Below are positions 894-53,601 of a DNA stretch of 64,000 bases, piece by piece (position 1 is the stretch's first letter; each line of letters starts with the position of its first letter). Origin of the DNA: Phototrophicaceae bacterium (GTDB lineage Bacteria > Chloroflexota > Anaerolineae > Aggregatilineales > Phototrophicaceae). Position numbers and translations under genes: made by a program. The DNA lies in the NCBI GenBank assembly GCA_965237765.1, contig OZ250157.1:1295508-1359507 (forward strand). Reading direction: 5' to 3'. The notes beneath the pieces are model-generated. The model worked only from the letters and a program-made list of their open reading frames with translations. It searched no databases and was not told the DNA's origin.

Positions 894-1020
894 GGGGTTA
901 GGATAGCGGGCGATGCGTTGCATCGCAGGCCGGCGCTTTGTGACTGCAGTCGCCGTCGAGAAAAGGGTCAAAGAGCGCATGTTACAATGTGGCCGCGGCC
1001 AGCAATGGATGGGGGCCACT

Positions 1021-1560
1021 ATGGACGAACCGAGGCAAGAATTCAACCAGGCGAAAGCCCTGGCGGTCGTCCTGTATCTGGCGATTCGCACCCCTCGTCC
1101 CAGCTTCATGAGCATCGCCAAACTGATGTACTTCGCGGACAAAACCCATCTGGAGCGCTATGGCCGCCTGATCAGCAGCGATCACTATGTCGCCAGGCAA
1201 CACGGGCCGGTGCCGAGCAACACCTACCAACTGATGCGCGACTCCGGAATCTACAGCCCATATGGCTTTAAGGTCGTCGACGATTACTTCATCGAGGCGA
1301 TTGACGCCCCGGACCTGGGCGAACTGGCGGACCAGGAGGTCCAATGCCTGGATGAGATCATCGCGCGTTTCGGCGACGCGCCTACCTGGTACCTGCAGCA
1401 ACTGAGTCAGGATCGCGCCTGGCAGCGCGCCTGGCAGGGTGGGCAGGAGCAGGGCGAAGCGAGCCACCCGATTCCCGAAGCGGAGCTGCTCCGCATGTTG
1501 TTCGCGGACCAGGGCGAGCAATGGCCGTCCTTTATCCAGGAACTCCGGGACAACCTTTAA
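1021..1560 (+). CDS. Panacea/DUF4065 (SocA/GepA-like) domain protein, putative antitoxin
   Basis: IAKLMYFADKTHLERYGRLISSDHYVARQHGPVPSNTY matches the DUF4065 core as I remember it. The track ORF starts at 913, and ATG 1021 (MDEPRQEF) is my preferred start. Confidence 0.6.
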   Translation: MDEPRQEFNQAKALAVVLYLAIRTPRPSFMSIAKLMYFADKTHLERYGRLISSDHYVARQHGPVPSNTYQLMRDSGIYSPYGFKVVDDYFIEAIDAPDLGELADQEVQCLDEIIARFGDAPTWYLQQLSQDRAWQRAWQGGQEQGEASHPIPEAELLRMLFADQGEQWPSFIQELRDNL

Positions 1561-1976
1561 TGCCCCTCCGCGAGGCAAAAGCCTGGCGTGTCTTCCGTTA
1601 CCAGAATCCGGACGACGAACCGGATGGAGCGTTGATTCTCGCCTTGTGGGTGGCAAGTGACACCATCCATGGAGTCAGGATCCATGCCAAACCGGCGAGG
1701 ATCAAGCCCTTGCAGGAAAGCGAGACGCTCCTCACGCTGGATTTCCTGCCACGACCGCTGGCTTACATCCGTTTCGACACGCTATTCAGCGGCAGCTTCG
1801 AAGCGTTCACCTCGAGCGACCAGGAGAAGAATTGGGTGGTCACGGGCCGCGCGCGCTATCAGGTGCTGGCCAAAGCCCTCAGTCCCGAATCGCGCTTATC
1901 GGGCAGAGTGAAAGGACTTTTGCGGCAGGAAAACCTCGCGTTCTTGAACCATTGGGCGAAGCGATTGCGGCTCTAA
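1560..1976 (+). CDS. Hypothetical protein, candidate toxin partner of the Panacea-domain protein
   Basis: ATG at 1560 overlaps the upstream TAA (TAATG). The 138 aa contain no motif I recognise. The 3' end overlaps the convergent methyltransferase gene by 4 nt. Confidence 0.45.
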   Translation: MPLREAKAWRVFRYQNPDDEPDGALILALWVASDTIHGVRIHAKPARIKPLQESETLLTLDFLPRPLAYIRFDTLFSGSFEAFTSSDQEKNWVVTGRARYQVLAKALSPESRLSGRVKGLLRQENLAFLNHWAKRLRL

Positions 1977-3427
1977 TTTACTCCCGCATCCAACCGCCGC
2001 TGCCAGGCCTGCGGGCGCAGCAGCTCCAGCGTCTCGCCCGCGCCGACCAGCGGCGGTACCGGCGCGCCACGGCGCCCTTCCAGCCAATCCTCCACGCTCC
2101 AGACACCGATGCGCGGCCCGCTCCACCCATTCAGTTGCACGCGCTCCTGAGCGCCGAGGTGGCCGCGCAGTCTATCAGCGATGCGCTCTTCGAGGACAAC
2201 CAGCAGCCCCGCCGCGCAGCCGTTCATCGTGAGCGCGCCGTGGAAGGCATCCAGCACCGGCCGGCCGACCGTTTGCCCGCCTTTGACCTGGAAGCCGAAG
2301 AGCGGTTGCGGCCGTTTGGCGCTGGCGATGACGGCGCGCCCATCCAGCCCGCCATCACCGCTCTGCTTGAAATTCGGCTGGGCGCCGGGGATGAGGCGGA
2401 TCGCCCAGCGCTCGAATTCGTAAGGGGCATTGGCGGCGAGGCGCTGGGCCTGCTCGAAATCGTAGGGGATGCCGCGGATCTGCGGGTCGACGCCGCAACG
2501 GTCGCGCAGGCGGCGGGCCATCAGGTCGACGGCCAAGGGTTCGACATCGATGCCCAACCAGCGACGCCCGAGGTTCTGGGCGGCTTCGACGGCCGTGCCG
2601 CAGCCGCAGAAGGGATCGAGGACGAGGTCGCCCTCGTCGCTGCTGGCCTGGATGATGCGTTCGAGTAGGGCGAGCGGCTTTTGGGTGGGGTAGCCGAGGC
2701 GTTCTTTTGATCTAGAAGAGAGGGTGATCTGCCATACATTATCAATTCGCTTGCCGTCTGGATTTATGTAGTATTTCTTCCCATTATTGGTTCGATAAAT
2801 TCCAATCTCATCACTTTGCCATTTTCGCAGTGTTGTTTTCGGCCATTTCTCTCTTAATACATTGAAGCAGTTTTTTGATTCCTTAGCATAAAACAAAATG
2901 GTGTCCGTATTCTTGATGAAATGTCGCAGTGGGTTGCCAGATGATGTCTGATAATGCCAAATTACTTCGTTCCGAAACTGTCGCGTCCCAAACACCCCAT
3001 CCATCAACAGCTTCAAATAATGCCCGGCAGTCGGGTCGCAGTGCAGGTAAATGCTGCCGCTCTCTTTGAGGACGCGCTTGCAAGCCAGCAGGCGCGCGGC
3101 CATGTAAGCCAGGTAGGCGGGCAGGCCACCCCCGGCGGCGATGTTGCCCCCGGAAGCGAAATTGAGCAAAAAACCCAGCTGCTGGTAGAGGGTGGCGTCG
3201 CGCTCGGCGACGTAATCGAGGGCCTCGTCCTGAGTATCCGACCAGACCCAGGTATCCTGAAAGACGCTGGCCTGGGCCTTGCCGCCGAGCGGGATGTTGT
3301 AATCGCGCTTGGAGTTGAAGGGCGGGTCCAGGTAGATGAGGTCGACACTGGCGGCAGGGATGTCGTCTGTAAGGATGCGCAGGCAATCGCCATAGAAGAG
3401 GGTGTTTTCGGGAGTTGTGGCTTGCAT
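1973..3427 (-). CDS. DNA methyltransferase (N6-adenine/N4-cytosine, beta-class) fused to a C-terminal Mrr-like PD-(D/E)xK nuclease domain
   Basis: Motif IV is IYLDPPFNS and motif I is LDPFCGCGTAVEAAQNLGRRWLGIDV. The C-terminal GDGGLDGRAV...FGFQVKGG resembles the Mrr catalytic core. The central 2700-3010 segment is strikingly low in GC. Confidence 0.85.
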   Translation of the reverse strand: MQATTPENTLFYGDCLRILTDDIPAASVDLIYLDPPFNSKRDYNIPLGGKAQASVFQDTWVWSDTQDEALDYVAERDATLYQQLGFLLNFASGGNIAAGGGLPAYLAYMAARLLACKRVLKESGSIYLHCDPTAGHYLKLLMDGVFGTRQFRNEVIWHYQTSSGNPLRHFIKNTDTILFYAKESKNCFNVLREKWPKTTLRKWQSDEIGIYRTNNGKKYYINPDGKRIDNVWQITLSSRSKERLGYPTQKPLALLERIIQASSDEGDLVLDPFCGCGTAVEAAQNLGRRWLGIDVEPLAVDLMARRLRDRCGVDPQIRGIPYDFEQAQRLAANAPYEFERWAIRLIPGAQPNFKQSGDGGLDGRAVIASAKRPQPLFGFQVKGGQTVGRPVLDAFHGALTMNGCAAGLLVVLEERIADRLRGHLGAQERVQLNGWSGPRIGVWSVEDWLEGRRGAPVPPLVGAGETLELLRPQAWQRRLDAGVN

Positions 3428-10144: not shown

Positions 10145-10311
10145 TTTCTATAAAAAGGTTATCCATCACCATCTACCCGAAGTGCACACAACAACTTATA
10201 CCCCTATAACTATTCCTTGCCCGCCTTCTCTAAGTCAGCAATGATGAATTTATTCATCTTTCGGGTTTAGACTATCACCGGTTTCCTTTCAGAAGCGGCA
10301 GTTACATTTGA

Positions 10312-10396
10312 CGGAGAGGGTGGGATTCGAACCCACGACGGCTTTCGCCGTACTCGCTCTCCAAGCGAGCGCATTAGGCCTCTATGCTACCTCTCC
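10312..10396 (-). tRNA. tRNA-Ser (anticodon GGA)
   Basis: Hand-folded cloverleaf: acceptor GGAGAGG/CCTCTCC, anticodon stem CTCGC/GCGAG with loop TTGGAGA, long variable arm CGGC-GAAA-GCCG, T-arm GTGGG-TTCGAAT-CCCAC. No encoded CCA. Confidence 0.9.
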
Positions 10397-10479
10397 GTGA
10401 GCATTCGAGCATCGAATGCTGGAGCAATCTAGTGTCGATTGCCTCGCCATATTAGCAATGAGGCCACCACCGCGCTAGC

Positions 10480-10597
10480 GCGTGCTGGCACCATGCAGCC
10501 GTAAGAAGCGCGTGCTGGCACCATGCAGCCGTAAGAAGCGCGTGTTGGCACTTCGCAGCGCGAGCTGGCACTTCGCAGCCGCAAGACGCCGTAAGAC
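10480..10597 (+). repeat. Dispersed repeat array, 4 modules (all T:A variant), between tRNA-Ser and the CMD-like gene
   Basis: Two 30-nt units GCGTGCTGGCACCATGCAGCCGTAAGAAGC, one 20-nt module, and one module with two CAA-type tails. Confidence 0.9.
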
Positions 10598-10649
10598 GCA
10601 CGTGCTGGGGTATGCTTGTGCTGTGAGGGATCAAGAAGGGAGGCGCGGT

Positions 10650-11237
10650 ATGCCTTACATCCGACAGGTGAGTGACGCAGAGGCACAAGGCGCCGCCAAA
10701 CGTGAACTGGATGCGGCGCGGAAGCGTGCCGGTGGCCGCGTCTGGAATATCGTGCGCATCATGACGCCCAATCCCGCTGCCCTGCGCGCTTCCATGAGCC
10801 TCTATAGTGCGTTGATGTTCGGCGAATCGCCCCTGACTCGCGCGCAACGGGAGCTGCTGGCCGTCGTCGTCAGCCGCGCCAACGATTGCCGTTACTGAAT
10901 CCACGCCCATGCCCACGACCTCCGTGCAGAGGTGCCGGGCGAGGATGTCGAGGCGGCGGATGCCTTCGTGCACCAGGTCGCGCGGGATTGGCGCGGGGCG
11001 GAGCTAAGCGCGGCCGAGCGGTCGCTTTGCGAATTCGCGGAGCGCCTCTCGCAAGACACCGGCGCGATGGGCGAGGGTGATATCCAGGCGTTGCGCGCGC
11101 AGGGCTGGGATGACCGCGCCATCCACGACGCCACGCAAATCATCGCCTATTTCAATTACATCAACCGCGTGGCCGACGCGCTGGGGGTCGAGCCAGAAAT
11201 TTTCGTGCGCCCCTGGGGGGAAAGCGACGGTCGATGA
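10650..11237 (+). CDS. Carboxymuconolactone decarboxylase / AhpD-like peroxidase-related protein with in-frame TGA (candidate selenocysteine) at 10896-10898
   Basis: Track ORFs 10482-10898 and 10932-11237 share a frame. The TGA sits at the second Cys position of the redox motif: SRANDC-R-Y-[TGA]-IHAHAHDL. ATG 10650 is preceded by GAAGGGAGG. Confidence 0.65.
10911..10940 (+). promoter_or_regulatory. Candidate bacterial SECIS-like stem-loop
   Basis: Lower stem 10911-10914/10937-10940 and upper stem 10918-10922/10929-10933. The apical loop CGUGCA starts 25 nt after the UGA. Hand-folded only. Confidence 0.3.
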
Positions 11238-11652
11238 CCAGCATCGAGAACCCCGACGTCGCGCGGGTGTTCGACCGCTACCCGGAGCCCATGCGCAAGA
11301 AGCTGCTGCACCTCCGCCAGATCATTTTGGACACAGCGTCGGAGACAGAGGGTGTCAACGAACTGGAGGAGACCCTGAAGTGGGGAGAGCCCAGCTACCT
11401 AACAGAGGGCGGTAGCACAGTCAGAATAGGCTGGAAGAAAAAGGCGCCGGAGCAGTACGCGATCTATTTCAATTGCAACACTTCACTGGTCGACACGTTC
11501 AGAGGCGTCTACGGGAATACATTCAACTTTGAGGGCACCGAGCCATCGTCTTCGGTGAAACCGACGAGCTACCCACCGACGAGTTGAAGCACTGCATCTC
11601 ACTCGTTCTGACATACCATCGTGTGAAGCACTTGCCATTGCTGGGTGTTTGA
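11234..11652 (+). pseudogene. DUF1801/YdhG-like protein gene with an apparent frameshift near 11535-11540
   Basis: The track ORF ends at 11587 with a low-complexity tail (EPSSSVKPTSYPPTS). The alternative frame continues protein-like (RAIVFGETDELPTDELKHCISLVLTYHRVKHLPLLGV*) to 11652. The family call is tentative. Confidence 0.5.
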
Positions 11653-11669
11653 ACGCTCCGTGCGCCCCT

Positions 11670-11684
11670 GGGGGGGGGGGGGGG
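11670..11684. repeat. Homopolymeric G15 tract
   Basis: Counted directly. It lies in a duplicated copy of the CMD-gene 3' end, where the original copy has G6 (11215-11220). Confidence 0.95.
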
Positions 11685-11737
11685 AATCCGGACGTAGCAC
11701 TCGCGCAGCCGTCTGCACGCAAAATGTCGTTTAAGTC

Positions 11738-12656
11738 ATGGATGAGGAGATACTGATGAACGAGCCGGCCGGGAACATCCGCCCAGATTGGGTATCGGAC
11801 GAGATGTACCCGTTTGAAAGTCGTTTTTTCCACACGCTCGATGGTCATGAGCTGCATTACGTGGACGAAGGTGCCGGTGCGCCGATCGTATTCGTGCATG
11901 GCAACCCATCCTGGTCTTTTGAATTTCGGCACCTGATCCGGGGCTTGCGGTCTGATTTCCACTGTGTAGCGCCAGATCATATCGGTTTCGGGCTCTCCTC
12001 CCGCAGTGAGCGATGGGAGGATTACCACCCCAAGGCGCATGCGGAGCGGCTCGCCGCGCTGCTCGAACAACTAGATCTTCGGGAAATCACGCTATTCCTG
12101 GTGGATTGGGGTGGCCCGATCGGGTTGGATTTCGCACGGAAGCGGCCAGAGCGGGTCAAGCGGATTGTGATTGCGAACACTTGGTGCTGGCCTGTGGCGG
12201 ATGATCGATATTATGTGATGTTCAGCGCTTTCATGTCGAGCTGGATCGGGCAACTCTTCATCCAACGTTTCAATATGTTCGTGAATCAGGTCATGCCCAT
12301 GGCGGTCGGGAACAAAGGCTGCCTGACGGCGCCGGTGCTGGAGCACTATCGCCAGGCGCAACCGACACCGCAAGCGCGGCGCGGCTGTGCGGCCCTGCCG
12401 GGGCATATCGTGGGGGCGACGGATTGGTTGGCGAGCATCTGGGGTGAGCCGGGCGAAATTCGCGGGGAAGCCGACGCTCCTATTTTGGGGCTTCAAAGAC
12501 ATTGCGTTTCGGGAGAAGGAACTCGGGAGGTGGAAATCCGAGTTGCAGGATTACGAGTTACACGAATTCCGGGACTGCGGACATTTCCTGGCGGAAGAGG
12601 CGCCGGAGCGGATGCTGCCAGCACTGCGCTCATTCATGGAAGCGCGGGGTCGCTGA
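11738..12656 (+). pseudogene. Haloalkane dehalogenase-like alpha/beta hydrolase with an apparent +1 frameshift near 12440-12450
   Basis: HGNPSWSFEFRHLI and VDWGGPIG motifs lie in frame 1. The family C-terminus (KPTLLFWGFKDIAF...FRDCGHFLAEEAPE) lies in the track ORF 12387-12656 frame. The switch occurs at a CTGGGG run. Confidence 0.7.
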
Positions 12657-12657
12657 A

Positions 12658-13377
12658 TCAGCGGCGCAAAATGCGGTAGGCATTCAGCGCGCCGCTGGCG
12701 CCATCGGCCGCGAAGGATTGCGCCAGCGAGAGGCCGCTGGCGGCGACTAGTTCACGCTCCTCTGCTCCATCGAAGTGATGGCAATAGCGGATGGCGCCCG
12801 CGGCGACATCCCCCCAAGGCAGCAGGAAATCATTCGCTTCGACCTGATCGGCGAAGGCGGGCGGCCAGGGTAGGGTGCGGCCGCGGAGGCGTGGATCCGC
12901 ACCGAAACGCCAGAAAGTGACGATGAGGACGCCATCGGCGCTCAAGCGCTCCCCCAAGGCGCGCAACAGGGCGGCGCGGCGCGCGCGGGCCGGGATGTGG
13001 TGCAGGACGCCCAGCAGGGCGATGAGCGGATAGCGGCCGTGGCGCGGTGGGTCGCTGCTGATATCACGCCATTCGAGGCGAGTCTTCGCCATTGGGAAGG
13101 TGCGCAGGGCGCGGGCTGCTTCGCGCAGGAGGGGCAGACTGGCGTCGACGGCGTGGTAGTGGAGCGGCGCGCCGGCGGGGTTGGCGCCCGCCCAGAAGCG
13201 CCCGAAGCGGCCGTTGCCGCAACCGACATCGAGCAGGCGCGCGCGGCCGCGGAGCAGGGGGAGCAGCTGTTGCCAGCCGGCCCAGGCCTGGCGGCGCGTG
13301 CGCGCGAAATCGGCCGCGTGGCGCTGGTAAAAGGAGCGGTTGATGGCCAGCAGGCGGCGGGCGGTGTCGATATTCAT
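12658..13377 (-). CDS. Class I SAM-dependent methyltransferase
   Basis: LLDVGCGNGRFG motif I, and a full-length ORF with coding-like composition. Confidence 0.75.
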   Translation of the reverse strand: MNIDTARRLLAINRSFYQRHAADFARTRRQAWAGWQQLLPLLRGRARLLDVGCGNGRFGRFWAGANPAGAPLHYHAVDASLPLLREAARALRTFPMAKTRLEWRDISSDPPRHGRYPLIALLGVLHHIPARARRAALLRALGERLSADGVLIVTFWRFGADPRLRGRTLPWPPAFADQVEANDFLLPWGDVAAGAIRYCHHFDGAEERELVAASGLSLAQSFAADGASGALNAYRILRR

Positions 13378-14944: not shown

Positions 14945-16168
14945 TCATAAAAACCGCACGGCTACCCCTTCGCCACAGGCGCGCCAGGCCAGCGCCAAGG
15001 CCATCACCGTGTCATCGTGCGCGCCGCCGGCCGCGCCGTAGCGATAACCGCCCAGCGGCAGGCGCTCCTGCTGGTAGGCCGCCAGCTCCGCCAGCAGCGT
15101 CGGCTCGGGTTGGATGCGCAAATCATCCCGCTCGAGCGCCAGGGCCAGCGCCTCGATCAGCGGCGGCTTGTTGCGCGCCGTCGTGTAGAAGGGGCGGATG
15201 GGCAAACCCTCGTGCTGCAGCGCTTCCAGGTTGGGCTCGCCGATGCTATTCGCCTCCGCCAGCAGCAGGGCCGGCCGCCAGCGTTCGGTGAGAGCCAGGA
15301 TGCGCGAGCGCTGCAGCTCCCAGCCGATTTCGCGGAACCGTTCCAGGGCGACCATGCGGGTGACCGCTGGTGCCCCGCCCGCGCTCTCATGGGGGATTTC
15401 CAGCACGACCACGGCGGTGTAGTCATGGCTGCGGCCCCAATCGATACCGGCGACGTAATGGCCGCTGGCGCGCGGGGCGGTTGCCATGGGCGCGCTGGCG
15501 GCGCGGGCCGGTTCGCGAAAGACGCCCGCTTCGCCCGGCAGGAATTCGGCCAGGTATTCGCGGCGGAAGGTGGTATCGCGCGTGTGGCGGCGCAGCGAAT
15601 CCAACTCGGCGCGGGTGATGCGCGGGTTGTCGTAACTGGTGAAATGGAAGCTGCGCCATTCGCGCTCCGCCGGGTCTTGTCCGCGCGCGTAGCATTTGTG
15701 GAACCAGTTCAAGCCGTTGGGAGTGGAGAGCAGGAGGACGCTGCCGCGGCGGTCGATGAGCATGGGGCGGAGGATGTCTTCCCAGAGAGGCTGCGGCACG
15801 TGAGCGGCTTCGTCTACGACGAGGAAATCCAGGCCGGCGCCGCGCAGGGAATCGTGGCTGCGGGCGCTGCGGACGAGGATGGAGCCGCCGCCGGGGAAAT
15901 CCAGCCCGCGTTCGGATTGGGCGATGGTGGCGCCGCTGGTGGCCGCTTCCGCGCAGAGGGCGCGCCAGACCTGCAATGCGTTGTCGTAGGTGGGCGCCAC
16001 CCACCAGCATTCCTTTTTTCGCCGCGCCCGGGCGAATATCGCTCGCAGGCCGACGGTCGTCTTGCCGAAGCGCCGCCCGCAGGCGACGACGCGGAAGCGC
16101 TCGTCCGCGCTGGCGATTTGTTTCTGCGCGGGGTGCAGGGTGACATGGGGGAATCTGCGCGATGCCAT
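14945..16168 (-). CDS. Phage terminase large subunit-like protein (orphan)
   Basis: Walker A CGRRFGKTT, Walker B DFLVVDEAAH, and an RNaseH-like nuclease region YVAGIDWGRSHDYT...GAHDDTVMALALA. No other phage structural genes in the window. Confidence 0.8.
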   Translation of the reverse strand: MASRRFPHVTLHPAQKQIASADERFRVVACGRRFGKTTVGLRAIFARARRKKECWWVAPTYDNALQVWRALCAEAATSGATIAQSERGLDFPGGGSILVRSARSHDSLRGAGLDFLVVDEAAHVPQPLWEDILRPMLIDRRGSVLLLSTPNGLNWFHKCYARGQDPAEREWRSFHFTSYDNPRITRAELDSLRRHTRDTTFRREYLAEFLPGEAGVFREPARAASAPMATAPRASGHYVAGIDWGRSHDYTAVVVLEIPHESAGGAPAVTRMVALERFREIGWELQRSRILALTERWRPALLLAEANSIGEPNLEALQHEGLPIRPFYTTARNKPPLIEALALALERDDLRIQPEPTLLAELAAYQQERLPLGGYRYGAAGGAHDDTVMALALAWRACGEGVAVRFL

Positions 16169-16228
16169 GGCCCAGTATGGGGCGTGAGGCGGCGGGAGCG
16201 GTTGGGGGGAATTGGCCTTAGTTGGGGG

Positions 16229-18895
16229 TTAGGAGTTGGTAGCGCTCAACACGCGCTGGCGCTGCTCATCGGTCAAGCCGTAGAGCGAGCAGACGGCAAC
16301 GTCGATTTCGGCGTCGAGAGCGGCCAGCTGGCGGCTCAGCGATAATTGCTCGTTGCTGCCTTTAAAGGCGGCGGCCGCCTTTGGCGCGAGGACCAGGGCC
16401 CACTTCACGGCGCGCTCGATCGTTTGCCGCCGCTGGTCGTCCGCTGCCGCGCGCGGGATGGGGATGCGGGAGACGTGGACACTGCGCCATTCCAACCAAC
16501 CACCTTCATTGCCGCCGCCACCACCCAGGGCAGATGCGTGGTATTTGAAGTAATGAAATATTGGACTGGAATTGAGGACGCCCAATAAATAGGCATCATC
16601 TACAGGTATGAAGAACAATTTGTTGTTGAGGAAATAGCCTTCGGCATCCAGCGTGAAGCGACTTTCTCTGGCGATCTCGGGGTAGACAATTTTGTGCGAG
16701 TGAAACTTTTCCAAATACGCGCAGGCTCTTAGCTCCCACCAGAACTCACCTTTGTCTTGTCGGCGCCGGGCGCGCTCCACAAATGGTTCCAGGTGTTGCA
16801 TGAGCGCTGGATGATTTGCGCGCATCCATTCTTCAGGGTCAGCATCGCCGCAATATTCCCGCGTCCAGCCCTTGGGAATGTTGATGAGATAACGCCCCCT
16901 ATCGCTTACGGTAAAGCGTTGTACATCTTCGCCACCCAGTACTTGGTGTATGAGCGGCGTGCTTTGTGGGTTCAGGCGTACGATGCGGTCGCGCGTGCTC
17001 TTCCCGATGATGAAGGCTTCGTTGTAACCAGTTTTTGTGCCAAGATAAATTTTGAAATTACTACTCAGATATTCCTCCAGTGGCACGCCAACTTTGTGCA
17101 TCCGTAGGAAGATGTCCATGTCCTCTTTAGGCGCCAGCGCCCAGCTGTCACCCTGCAGCGAGCGCTCGTCCAGCACCGTGCCGTATTCGTTGACGGCCTC
17201 GTCCAGGTTGCCTTGGGATAAGTCGTTGACGGGCGCGTAGATAAAATCTTGCTTTTCGGGACGGCTTTCGGCCTTTTGCGTGATGACAATGGAGGTATAA
17301 GCGGCCACGCCCTCAAACACCGGCAAGCGGCCGAAGTCGATGATTTCTTCCAGATTGGTCACTTCCAGTAAATACTCACGCAGCCCTTTACCATAGGCGG
17401 CGCGCAAGAATTTGTTGGAGGAAATGAAGCTGAAGTAACCACCGGGCCGCAGCAGCTCGTGCGCGCGCTCGTAAAAGCAGACATAGAGATCGGCGCGGCC
17501 CGTGTAGCTGCGGTATTTCCTACGCGCATATTGCTTGAATTGGGACGGTTGCGCTTCCTGCCGCACATAGGGCGGGTTGCCGATGACCACATCGAAACCA
17601 CCGCCAGCTAAGGCTTCTGGGAATTCTTCGGGCCAATCGAATTCCTCGTCGATCAGGCTATCGCCATGGTGGATGTTCGGGATATCGGGCAGCCTGGCGC
17701 GCTGATCCACCGCCCGCAACCAGAGGTTCAGCCGCGTAACAGCGATAGCCTGCGGGTCCTTATCGACGCCATACAGGTTTTCGCGCAGGATGTGCTGTTT
17801 GCGTTGCGAAGTTTCGCGTAGCGTCGGGTCGTTATCCCGCAGCCATTCATCGATCACGTCAAAAGCGGCGATGAGGAAAGAGCCCGAACCGCAAGCCGGG
17901 TCCAGCACACGGATCTGGCGGGCGGCCGCGATTCCGCCGCGTTCAAAGGCCGCATCCAGCGCTTTGACGACCGTGTTGCGCACGATATAGCGGACAACGA
18001 AGCGCCGCGTGTAGTAGATGCCCTGTTGTTTGCGGTGTGCCTGCTTCGATTGCGCCAGTGACAGGTATTGCTCGTAAATGGTGCCGAGCACATCGGCGCC
18101 GATGACCGAGAAATCGTAGGGTATCAACGCCTTTTGGATGTGATAGTTGCGGTAGTGTAGACCATTGACAATATCCTGCAACAGCTTGGCGGAGCCTCCA
18201 TAATCCTCGAAAAAATAATTCTCACAATAGTGCTCCGCAAAGAGTTGGGCGTTGTAGATGGCATCCAATTCCCGGAAGAGGGATAAGAGGTGAGCGGGTA
18301 GTTTAGATACCGCCCGTCCTTCCAGCTGGCGCAAAACGGGGAGCAGCAGGGGATCCTCAATTTCTCGGTCCTCCACGTTGCGGATGAAGATGAGGCGATT
18401 GAGGATCAGTTGCACGGCCTCTTCGCGCTGCTCTTCGGTCCAGTCAGGGAGAAATTCGCGGAGGTTGGCGAGCAGGTCTTGTCGCCAACCGGCCAGGTCT
18501 TCGTAGAGTTGTTTGTCGACGGGTTGGCGGCGCGGGATGCCGACGGCACGTTCTTGGAGTTCGCGCGCTGTCATGGAAACTTTGCTGAGTAGCCAGAGCT
18601 TGTCGAAGCGGCACAGGAATTCCTCATGCCCCAGCGAGATGAAGGGGATGATGTGATGGGAGTACCGGCTGACGTAGTAGAGTTTCAGCTCACAGAAGTT
18701 GGTCAGCACGGCCCAATCGACGCCACGATTCCAGGCGTAATCGGTCGCTTGCCGGGCGTAATCGGGATTGGCGAGTTCGGCATCGAGGTTTTTCGCTTCG
18801 AGCAGGAAGCGCGTCACCCCTTTGATTTTGAAGGCATAATCGACGCGCTTGCGGCCGCTGGCTTCTTCGCGGGTGACTTCGGCGTTGTGGTGCAT
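16229..18895 (-). CDS. Type IIG restriction-modification enzyme (Eco57I-like: PD-(D/E)xK nuclease + N6-adenine methyltransferase + specificity region)
   Basis: DYAFKIKGVTRFLLEAKN (nuclease), VLDPACGSGSFL (motif I), VVIGNPPYV (motif IV). The same frame stays open and protein-like upstream to about 19060 with no in-frame start codon, so the true 5' end is uncertain. Confidence 0.85.
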   Translation of the reverse strand: MHHNAEVTREEASGRKRVDYAFKIKGVTRFLLEAKNLDAELANPDYARQATDYAWNRGVDWAVLTNFCELKLYYVSRYSHHIIPFISLGHEEFLCRFDKLWLLSKVSMTARELQERAVGIPRRQPVDKQLYEDLAGWRQDLLANLREFLPDWTEEQREEAVQLILNRLIFIRNVEDREIEDPLLLPVLRQLEGRAVSKLPAHLLSLFRELDAIYNAQLFAEHYCENYFFEDYGGSAKLLQDIVNGLHYRNYHIQKALIPYDFSVIGADVLGTIYEQYLSLAQSKQAHRKQQGIYYTRRFVVRYIVRNTVVKALDAAFERGGIAAARQIRVLDPACGSGSFLIAAFDVIDEWLRDNDPTLRETSQRKQHILRENLYGVDKDPQAIAVTRLNLWLRAVDQRARLPDIPNIHHGDSLIDEEFDWPEEFPEALAGGGFDVVIGNPPYVRQEAQPSQFKQYARRKYRSYTGRADLYVCFYERAHELLRPGGYFSFISSNKFLRAAYGKGLREYLLEVTNLEEIIDFGRLPVFEGVAAYTSIVITQKAESRPEKQDFIYAPVNDLSQGNLDEAVNEYGTVLDERSLQGDSWALAPKEDMDIFLRMHKVGVPLEEYLSSNFKIYLGTKTGYNEAFIIGKSTRDRIVRLNPQSTPLIHQVLGGEDVQRFTVSDRGRYLINIPKGWTREYCGDADPEEWMRANHPALMQHLEPFVERARRRQDKGEFWWELRACAYLEKFHSHKIVYPEIARESRFTLDAEGYFLNNKLFFIPVDDAYLLGVLNSSPIFHYFKYHASALGGGGGNEGGWLEWRSVHVSRIPIPRAAADDQRRQTIERAVKWALVLAPKAAAAFKGSNEQLSLSRQLAALDAEIDVAVCSLYGLTDEQRQRVLSATNS

Positions 18896-52521: not shown

Positions 52522-53601
52522 TCAGAGCGAGAAGAGAGAATCTTCCCAATCGATGGGCGCGATCGTGTCCTCGCGTTCGGGTTGGCCGCCGCGCGTTTGC
52601 CAGGGCATGGCGCCCTCGCGGCTCCAATCGATGCGGCGGGCGTAGGCGCGGCCGGCATCTTCCAACAGATCCAGCGCGGCCGGCTTGGTGCTATCCAGGC
52701 CAATGAGGGCGGGCTCCGGCCGACCAGCGACGGTGACGCCCAGGTTGCGCGACAGGCTTTCGCGCGTGAAAAGCGGGTTGTAATAGCGGAAATCCAACCG
52801 TTGCCCATAGAGACGGCGCGTCGTGCTGACTTGTTGCTGGTTTGCTTGCGAGAAGCCGATTTGGAAGGCGTAAAAGGCCCAATCGAGCAGGTGGAAGCGG
52901 CGCGCGGCGCCATCGGCATAGAGTTCTGGCGTGTAACCGCTGCCCAACGTGATCAGGATGACCTGGCCATCTTGAAAGCCCTCGGCGGCGCCCAGGTATT
53001 CCATCGCTTCGATGGCCGCGGATAGGCAGGGGTTGAAATGCACGCCGACACCGCCATCGATGAGGTTGCCGCGCACCGGCGGGAAGAAGACGGGTGCCGC
53101 CGCGCTGGCCGCCACCGCCCCCGCTAAGGGCCAATTGGCGAAGCGCGCCCGCCCCGGCCCGCGCGAAACGATGTAATAGGTGTTGCCGGTGCGCGTGTCT
53201 GTCGTCGTCAGCAGCAAGATCGGCGCTTCGATATCGCCGACGCGTAGGTTGGCCACATAGGGCGAGAGGATGCGCGCGAATGGTTCCAGCGAATACATGT
53301 GGCGCGTGCCGCGCAGCAGGAAGCGCAACCAGAAACCCAGCCCGCGCCGCCCGAAGGCCCGCGGCAACGCCTCGCGGTAGATTTCGTTCAGGATGCGCTC
53401 GGCGCTCATGCCGACGGCGAAACCGGCGGCCATCAGCGCGCCCGTGCTCGTGCCGGCGATCATATCCACCTGTTCGTAGATGGGCCGGCCGCTGTAGCGC
53501 TCGAGCTCGGCCAGCATCGCCAGGCTGATCAGGCCGCGCATGCCGCCGCCGGAGAGCGAGAGGATGACCTTTTTTCCCTGGGGGTTGAAGACGCCGGGCA
53601 C
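52522..53601 (-). CDS. Patatin-like phospholipase
   Basis: LSGGGMRG oxyanion motif, GTSTG nucleophile elbow, and the DGG motif (LIDGGVG). Confidence 0.85.
   Translation of the reverse strand: MPGVFNPQGKKVILSLSGGGMRGLISLAMLAELERYSGRPIYEQVDMIAGTSTGALMAAGFAVGMSAERILNEIYREALPRAFGRRGLGFWLRFLLRGTRHMYSLEPFARILSPYVANLRVGDIEAPILLLTTTDTRTGNTYYIVSRGPGRARFANWPLAGAVAASAAAPVFFPPVRGNLIDGGVGVHFNPCLSAAIEAMEYLGAAEGFQDGQVILITLGSGYTPELYADGAARRFHLLDWAFYAFQIGFSQANQQQVSTTRRLYGQRLDFRYYNPLFTRESLSRNLGVTVAGRPEPALIGLDSTKPAALDLLEDAGRAYARRIDWSREGAMPWQTRGGQPEREDTIAPIDWEDSLFSL

Follow-up and report, generated by a model that had tools for sequence, protein, structure and literature searches.

A predicted AhpD-like selenoprotein gene with a constrained SECIS-like hairpin in a Chloroflexota-like genome

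Within the 64,000-nucleotide stretch of DNA analyzed here (the window), we found a gene whose codon 83, an in-frame UGA, is in all probability decoded as selenocysteine (Sec), which would make its product a selenoprotein of the AhpD-like TIGR01926/COG2128 type. We favor this prediction because the codon lines up with the second Cys of a redox motif, because TGA is retained at that codon throughout the family, because the frame beyond it remains under selection and because the hairpin that follows it is constrained. The locus is a further member of an established family of predicted selenoproteins, in agreement with it on every criterion that can be tested computationally, and its novelty is low since the AhpD-like CxxU proteins already form such a family.

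The open reading frames at 10482-10898 and 10932-11237 lie in one frame and are parted only by the TGA at 10896-10898, as the first-pass annotation of this DNA had proposed and as re-reading of the sequence confirmed. Read through from the ATG at 10650 to the stop TGA at 11235-11237, they yield 195 codons, matching the protein of about 195 residues expected earlier, and the gene contains no stops or frameshifts besides the TGA at codon 83. The peptide around this codon is VVSRANDC80-R-Y-[TGA]83-I-H-A-H87-A-H-D-L-R-A-E-V, in which the motif SRANDC-R-Y-[TGA]-IHAHAHDL reads exactly as previously described. The 5′ extension of the first frame, starting at 10482, crosses a 30-nt tandem repeat and lies outside the gene; the relatives share an M-P-[YWF]-I start, represented by M-P-Y-I in the window gene. 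A promoter and terminator scan around 10650-11237 gave no match. The coordinates of all features, including those of the corresponding codon in related loci, are collected in Table 1.

Table 1. Features of the predicted selenoprotein gene and codons found at the Sec position in related loci
Feature	Locus	Position	Strand	Basis or remark
Shine-Dalgarno-like GGGAGG	Window	10638..10643	+	Read from sequence; 6 nt upstream of ATG 10650
AhpD-like (TIGR01926) selenoprotein gene, predicted	Window	10650..11237	+	195 codons including Sec83; profile and structure alignments
Glu68 codon, putative proton-relay Glu	Window	10851..10853	+	12 residues before Cys80; invariant in 81/81
Cys80 codon TGC, first position of C-x-x-U, presumed resolving thiol	Window	10887..10889	+	Invariant in 81/81 TGA-containing sequences
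In-frame TGA, predicted selenocysteine 83	Window	10896..10898	+	Family-wide TGA; aligns with second Cys of C-x-Y-C
His87 codon, histidine of C-x-x-U-x-x-x-H	Window	10908..10910	+	Invariant in 81/81
Bacterial SECIS-like stem-loop	Window	10910..10941	+	Fold, covariation, synonymous-site constraint; agrees with bSECIS criteria
117-aa DUF1801-like ORF	Window	11234..11587	+	ATG overlaps stop of selenoprotein gene (ATGA)
TGG (Trp) at Sec position	L082/L083	10244-10246
AGA (Arg) at Sec position	L084	3244-3246
AGA (Arg) at Sec position	L085	881-883
CGA (Arg) at Sec position	L094
GGA (Gly) at Sec position	L093
TGA behind 'W' records P0001, P0003, P0064	L087	519-521
	L088	389-391
	L089	548-550
	L090	451-453

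When the read-through protein was searched against family profiles with codon 83 entered as Cys, it matched the Pfam CMD domain (PF02627, E = 1.5e-10) and scored 144.7 bits against NCBIfam TIGR01926, 'peroxidase-related enzyme', well above the cut-off of 81.8, with the match extending over residues 3-182 of the protein and positions 2-175 of the 178-position profile. These results bear out the earlier assignment to the carboxymuconolactone decarboxylase/AhpD-like peroxidase-related family. Although the CMD domain is present, the protein does not belong to the PcaC type: NCBIfam gave no PcaC equivalog match, and no pca genes were found nearby among the scanned window ORFs. Each of the solved homologues 6K40, 2OYO, 3C1L, 2PFX and 2PRR produced a single unbroken alignment across the TGA, these alignments together spanning residues 26-183 (E = 9e-27 for 6K40 to 2e-19), and therefore the two ORFs are halves of one domain, as they had appeared to be on first inspection. 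The C-x-Y-C of 6K40, 2OYO and 3C1L falls on C80 and U83, and two Cys forms among the relatives, P0012 and P0076, have TGC at the codon aligned with the window TGA, so that the position suspected from the sequence alone, the second Cys of a C-x-x-C motif, is also the one indicated by alignment.

The residues around this position follow a known active-site arrangement. E68, C80, Y82 and H87 are invariant in all 81 sequences compared. The relay layout of AhpD, Glu-x11-Cys-x-Tyr/His-Cys-x3-His (PMC3141380), maps to E68, C80, Y82, U83 and H87, and the spacing between E68 and C80 is that of the proton relays of PA0269 (Glu36/Cys48) and Mycobacterium tuberculosis AhpD (Glu118/Cys130) (PMC3141380).

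To place the gene among its relatives we relied on one scan of species-representative genomes, which returned 587 relatives, and kept the best 80. These comprise approximately 51 from Chloroflexota, 18 from Gemmatimonadota, 6 from Planctomycetota, 3 from Actinomycetota and 2 from unclassified metagenome-assembled genomes (MAGs), and the top relative is a Chloroflexi MAG with 81% identity. All of the best 80 of 587 loci (80/80), from four phyla, have TGA at codon 83, embedded in the motif C-x-Y-TGA-x-x-[ASG]-H-A-[HYN]-D-L. Purifying selection acts on both halves of the gene: pairwise dN/dS ranges from 0.02 to 0.27 in the N-terminal half and, with a single very close pair as the exception, from 0.09 to 0.26 after the hairpin, and for most pairs the values on either side of the TGA lie within 0.09-0.27.

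Database records of the family are affected by the TGA in two ways. Dozens of relatives are stored as fragments of approximately 110 aa that begin just after it, the mark of split gene calls, and several full-length homologues carry W at the Sec column. For P0001, P0003 and P0064 the 'W' goes back to a TGA in the DNA, on contigs of about 1 kb to which the gene callers applied table 4. P0064 is a cluster of 550 sequences with 'W' at this column, and the table-4 translation of P0001 continues past its true stop. We considered the 'W' homologues as an argument against Sec and rejected it, three of the four that were checked being TGA read by table 4. Artefacts of this kind conceal selenoproteins and can make alignments misleading.

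A stem-loop with the apical loop CGUGCA had been drawn from the sequence 3′ of the TGA, and the minimum free energy (MFE) fold reproduces it: a lower stem (10910-10914/10937-10941), an upper stem (10918-10922/10929-10933) and the loop at 10923-10928. The published model of bacterial SECIS elements (bSECIS) asks for 3-9 nt in the loop, 4-16 bp in the upper stem and a spacing of 16-37 nt from the UGA (PMC13188914), together with a G in loop position 1 or 2 (G[G/U]) and an MFE of at most -7.5 kcal/mol (PMC13188914). The window element satisfies all of these, with a 6-nt loop beginning 24 nt after the UGA, a stem of 5 bp, GU at loop positions 2-3 and a fold energy of -15.6 kcal/mol for 10910-10942; the placement of a SECIS-like hairpin at this distance, claimed earlier, was thus right. 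Compared with shuffled versions of this G+C-rich sequence, the single-sequence fold is no better (z = -0.5). One sequence alone therefore proves nothing, and it is the comparative data that carry the case for the hairpin.

In alignment A2 (81 sequences, ungapped), the codons for D-L-R-A-E-V read GACCUC-CGKGNN-GAGGUC and form a family-wide hairpin of 6-7 bp with a 6-nt loop that starts 24 nt after the UGA, its sequence nearly unchanged across four phyla. Of the hairpin cells in these 81 sequences 96.2% are paired; sliding the 3′ partners lowers this to 17-44%. At the closing pair (21-40), 33 sequences have CG, 15 have UA and 15 have UG, and at pair 24-37 there are 74 with CG and 3 with UA, with three C-G to U-A double changes (GAU...AUC). 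The synonymous sites are frozen as well: the hairpin Leu is CTC in 81 of 81 sequences, compared with 30% of the Leu codons elsewhere in the same genes, and the hairpin Glu is GAG in 81 of 81 against a background of 54%. The Arg of the loop is always CGT or CGG (81/81) and never CGC (0/81), the codon used for 52% of Arg elsewhere in these genes, from which it follows that a G and then a U or G are maintained at loop positions 2-3. Covariation and frozen synonymous sites together point to constraint acting on the hairpin at the level of RNA, and we regard this comparative evidence as decisive.

The window copy departs from the family-wide form in its details. Its upper stem has 5 bp, with G10917/G10934 and C10916/C10935 unpaired; the sixth pair is broken because Val95 is encoded by GTG, and a seventh cannot form at C10916/C10935. 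The lower stem, with which the fold reaches -15.6 kcal/mol, is seen only in the window and in two other loci, L001 and L002; the two-stem structure of the first-pass annotation therefore stands as a description of the window fold, but family-wide it is the upper hairpin alone that is conserved. Rfam gave no relevant family, either for the whole window at the gathering threshold or in a permissive search of 10600-11300. Some part of the hairpin conservation may be due to the D-L-R-A-E-V peptide or to recent ancestry, a caveat we raise because the hairpin persists in relatives with a sense codon and largely in one T-x-x-C form.

True sense codons (TGG, AGA, CGA or GGA, each one nucleotide from TGA) occur at the Sec position in a few metagenomic relatives, the TGG form being read on 10 contigs of which the longest is 199 kb, and in all four variants the hairpin is fully intact. 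Such codons may have arisen as rescue mutations once Sec decoding was lost, or the genes that carry them may be paralogues with altered redox properties. Among the distant Cys forms, P0076 has no hairpin and P0012 a degraded one. In the T-x-x-C subgroup (the P0021 group, including L091), Thr replaces the first Cys and Cys stands at the U position, and L091 keeps 6 of 7 hairpin pairs (GACUAU-CGGGAA-GAGGUC), which suggests that this subgroup descends from a Sec-containing ancestor and that its hairpin is a relic SECIS. Retention of the U position as Cys, with the first Cys lost, agrees with the U position being essential. That the hairpin or the D-L-R-A-E-V peptide has a second function, or that Sec is recurrently replaced by Trp, Arg or Gly (not Cys) in a way that rescues a full-length single-Cys protein once Sec decoding is lost, we consider improbable.

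It is very unlikely that the locus encodes two small products, an 82-aa peptide and a separately initiated C-terminal protein of about 100 aa, or that a near-cognate tRNA (Trp, Cys or Arg), aided by the hairpin, reads through the UGA independently of SelB. Such a reading could draw on the GTG at 10932, on the TGG, AGA, CGA and GGA relatives, in which a full-length protein without Sec is evidently tolerated somewhere, and on the searches of the 64 kb window, which turned up no Sec machinery. ARAGORN found no tRNA-Sec in the window or in 80 related loci, and none of selA, selB or selD was found among 50 window ORFs with NCBIfam and Pfam, a span of 64 kb that says little about the whole genome. 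Six-frame regex scans for SelD, SelA and GTPase motifs over the window and approximately 1.2 Mb of the relatives' flanks returned nothing credible. Against it, the solved homologues contain both halves within a single domain, and in the relatives no conserved start codon or ribosome-binding site follows the TGA, the called fragment starts varying from one to another. The codon also coincides with the catalytic Cys, and the loop retains the SelB-type G[G/U] signature in spite of codon bias. Sec-using Chloroflexi have been reported in the literature, and the gene, as read here from its sequence, would imply that its source organism decodes Sec.

A decayed gene or a sequencing error, by which a Cys or other codon was mutated or misread to TGA and the protein truncated after residue 82, is hardly credible. 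At least one lesion does appear to lie nearby in the assembly or the genome, since the alpha/beta hydrolase gene at 11738-12679 looks frameshifted near 12440, but neither decay nor error would put TGA at this same codon in every one of 80 independent genomes of four phyla (the best 80 of 587), keep the gene free of other stops and frameshifts, hold dN/dS at 0.1-0.3 in the frame after the TGA and conserve a SECIS-like hairpin 3′ of it. Reassignment of every TGA to Trp (table 4) or Gly (table 25), giving C-x-x-W or C-x-x-G, has the W of several database homologues in its favor and a negligible probability, given that the W residues checked (P0001, P0003 and P0064) are TGA under table-4 calling, that the window has a G+C content of 63%, that its scan gave no other convincing in-frame TGA and that 31 of the window's 58 candidate ORFs, this gene among them, stop at TGA, more than at any other stop codon, which excludes recoding. 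Code reassignment, pseudogene and sequencing error can thus be excluded for practical purposes, and we retain Sec decoding as the preferred reading.

In this preferred reading, the UGA-proximal hairpin of the mRNA would be a bacterial SECIS element, whose loop would bring SelB-GTP-Sec-tRNA(Sec) to a ribosome paused with UGA 83 in its A site, so that delivery by SelB would outcompete release factor 2 at this codon. By comparison with characterized Cys homologues, the product would be a CxxU thiol/selenol oxidoreductase in which the U83 selenolate may act as nucleophile on a peroxiredoxin sulfenate or disulfide, or on a hydroperoxide, with Cys80 then forming a selenenylsulfide to resolve the adduct. 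On the model of M. tuberculosis AhpD and PA0269, an AhpD-type proton relay would consist of Glu68, Tyr82 and His87.

Upstream of the selenoprotein gene is a tRNA-Ser(GGA) at 10310-10397 on the minus strand, and the earlier remark that the neighboring tRNA is this one and not tRNA-Sec was correct. There is no peroxiredoxin or ahpC gene beside the selenoprotein gene in the window, and neither tblastn of the window neighbors nor clustering of ORFs within 3 kb (≤3 kb) across 80 loci revealed a universally conserved neighbor. The best partner candidates are an Ogt/Ada-like gene in 14 of 80 loci and ThyX in seven Gemmatimonadota loci; at L082, one of the loci with the TGG variant, an AhpC-TSA gene lies 2 kb away. 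Synteny extends only to L001 and L002, which share the upstream tRNA-Ser(GGA) and, downstream, a methyltransferase and a thymidine phosphorylase. A scan of the window for other selenoprotein candidates with an in-frame TGA gave only adjacent genes or shadow frames.

The DUF1801-like ORF that overlaps the end of the selenoprotein gene is absent from L001, L002 and all other loci and is therefore not a conserved partner. Together with the following hydrolase gene it makes up an insertion (window 11234-12679) relative to L001 and L002, where the methyltransferase (window 12658-13377) lies directly 3′ of the selenoprotein gene. The hydrolase, a haloalkane-dehalogenase-like alpha/beta hydrolase at 11738-12679, appears frameshifted: it matches its family up to residue 237, with the change of frame near 12440, and its conserved C-terminus (KPTLLFWGFKD...DCGHFLAEEAPE) resumes in another frame, in the ORF at 12387-12656; this would be either an indel error of the assembly or the sign of a pseudogene. 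Between the tRNA-Ser(GGA) and the selenoprotein gene we also observed tandem repeats (10477-10599), made up of 2.5 copies of the 30-nt unit AGCGCGTGCTGGCACCATGCAGCCGTAAGA and then of degenerate units of 20 nt and 10 nt, with TGGCAC in each. The syntenic intergenic regions of L001 and L002 do not contain these repeats.

Elsewhere in the window, genes of defense or mobile type occur at 913-3427, 14945-18895 and 52522-53601. These comprise an ORF like the SocA/Panacea antitoxin, a DNA methylase with a fused Mrr-like nuclease and an ORF resembling a CBASS-type patatin phospholipase, as well as a Terminase_6N/6C-like ORF that adjoins a BREX PglX-like methyltransferase, the last two being present also in L001 and L002.

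The main value of the locus lies in annotation, because many relatives are stored, in the collection of public proteins that we searched, as fragments or as table-4 'Trp' proteins, and the gene provides a clean example for fixing selenoprotein calls in MAGs of Chloroflexota, Gemmatimonadota, Planctomycetota and Actinomycetota. In addition, the set of 81 sequences defines a bacterial SECIS under unusually tight constraint, which could be used as the family's covariance model. For biology the gene adds little, being one more antioxidant-type CxxU protein in a family that is already abundant.

The remark made when the TGA was first noticed, that AhpD-like proteins are reported to include Sec-containing members, agrees with the literature. 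The AhpD-like CxxU family (COG2128) was predicted in 2005 by Zhang, Fomenko and Gladyshev from 27 Sargasso Sea sequences (PMC1088965). In 2008 'AhpD-like 1' was among the most abundant families of the GOS data with 299 sequences (PMC2398784), and the AhpD-like family is listed under TIGR01926 in reviews of 2022 (PMC9312934) and 2026 (PMC13188914). We found no published experiment that demonstrates Sec in any AhpD-like CxxU member.

A second family with a related AhpD-type domain and the same C-x-Y-U motif, NF041238 (AhpD_rel_CFYUT), has about 357 residues; the window protein scores 66.9 bits against its cut-off of 175, over the C-terminal 174 positions of the model (161-334), and as judged from this profile comparison it is not a member. 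Likewise, it stays far below the threshold of AhpD proper (TIGR00777; 23.4 versus 191.95 bits), with only residues 56-100 matching. The TIGR00777 protein M. tuberculosis AhpD, an AhpC reductant, shares the layout of the proton relay with the window protein, which by this analogy probably works in the same way. The two differ in that the active site is in the C-terminal half of M. tuberculosis AhpD and in the N-terminal half of the window protein and PA0269, and in that His132 of the former is Tyr in the window protein.

The solved Cys homologues, DR_1765 (the AhpD of Deinococcus radiodurans, 6K40) and the structural-genomics entries 2OYO, 3C1L, 2PFX and 2PRR ('uncharacterized peroxidase-related protein'), have the same length as the window protein (approximately 190 aa) and align with it as a single domain. 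In 6K40, 2OYO and 3C1L the C-x-Y-C-x-x-x-H motif and the Glu 12 residues upstream are placed as in the window protein. The solved homologues have Cys where the window protein has UGA, and the hairpin-encoding segment D-L-R-A-E-V is missing from them, 6K40 for instance reading GAALREFSG there. With the AhpD-like CxxU family itself (COG2128 YciW/TIGR01926), the window gene shares the profile, Sec predicted at the second position of the motif, a hairpin with G in the loop and the existence of Cys homologues. That family was first known from marine metagenomes and the window copy comes from an uncultured Chloroflexota-like genome; we see no essential difference between the two.
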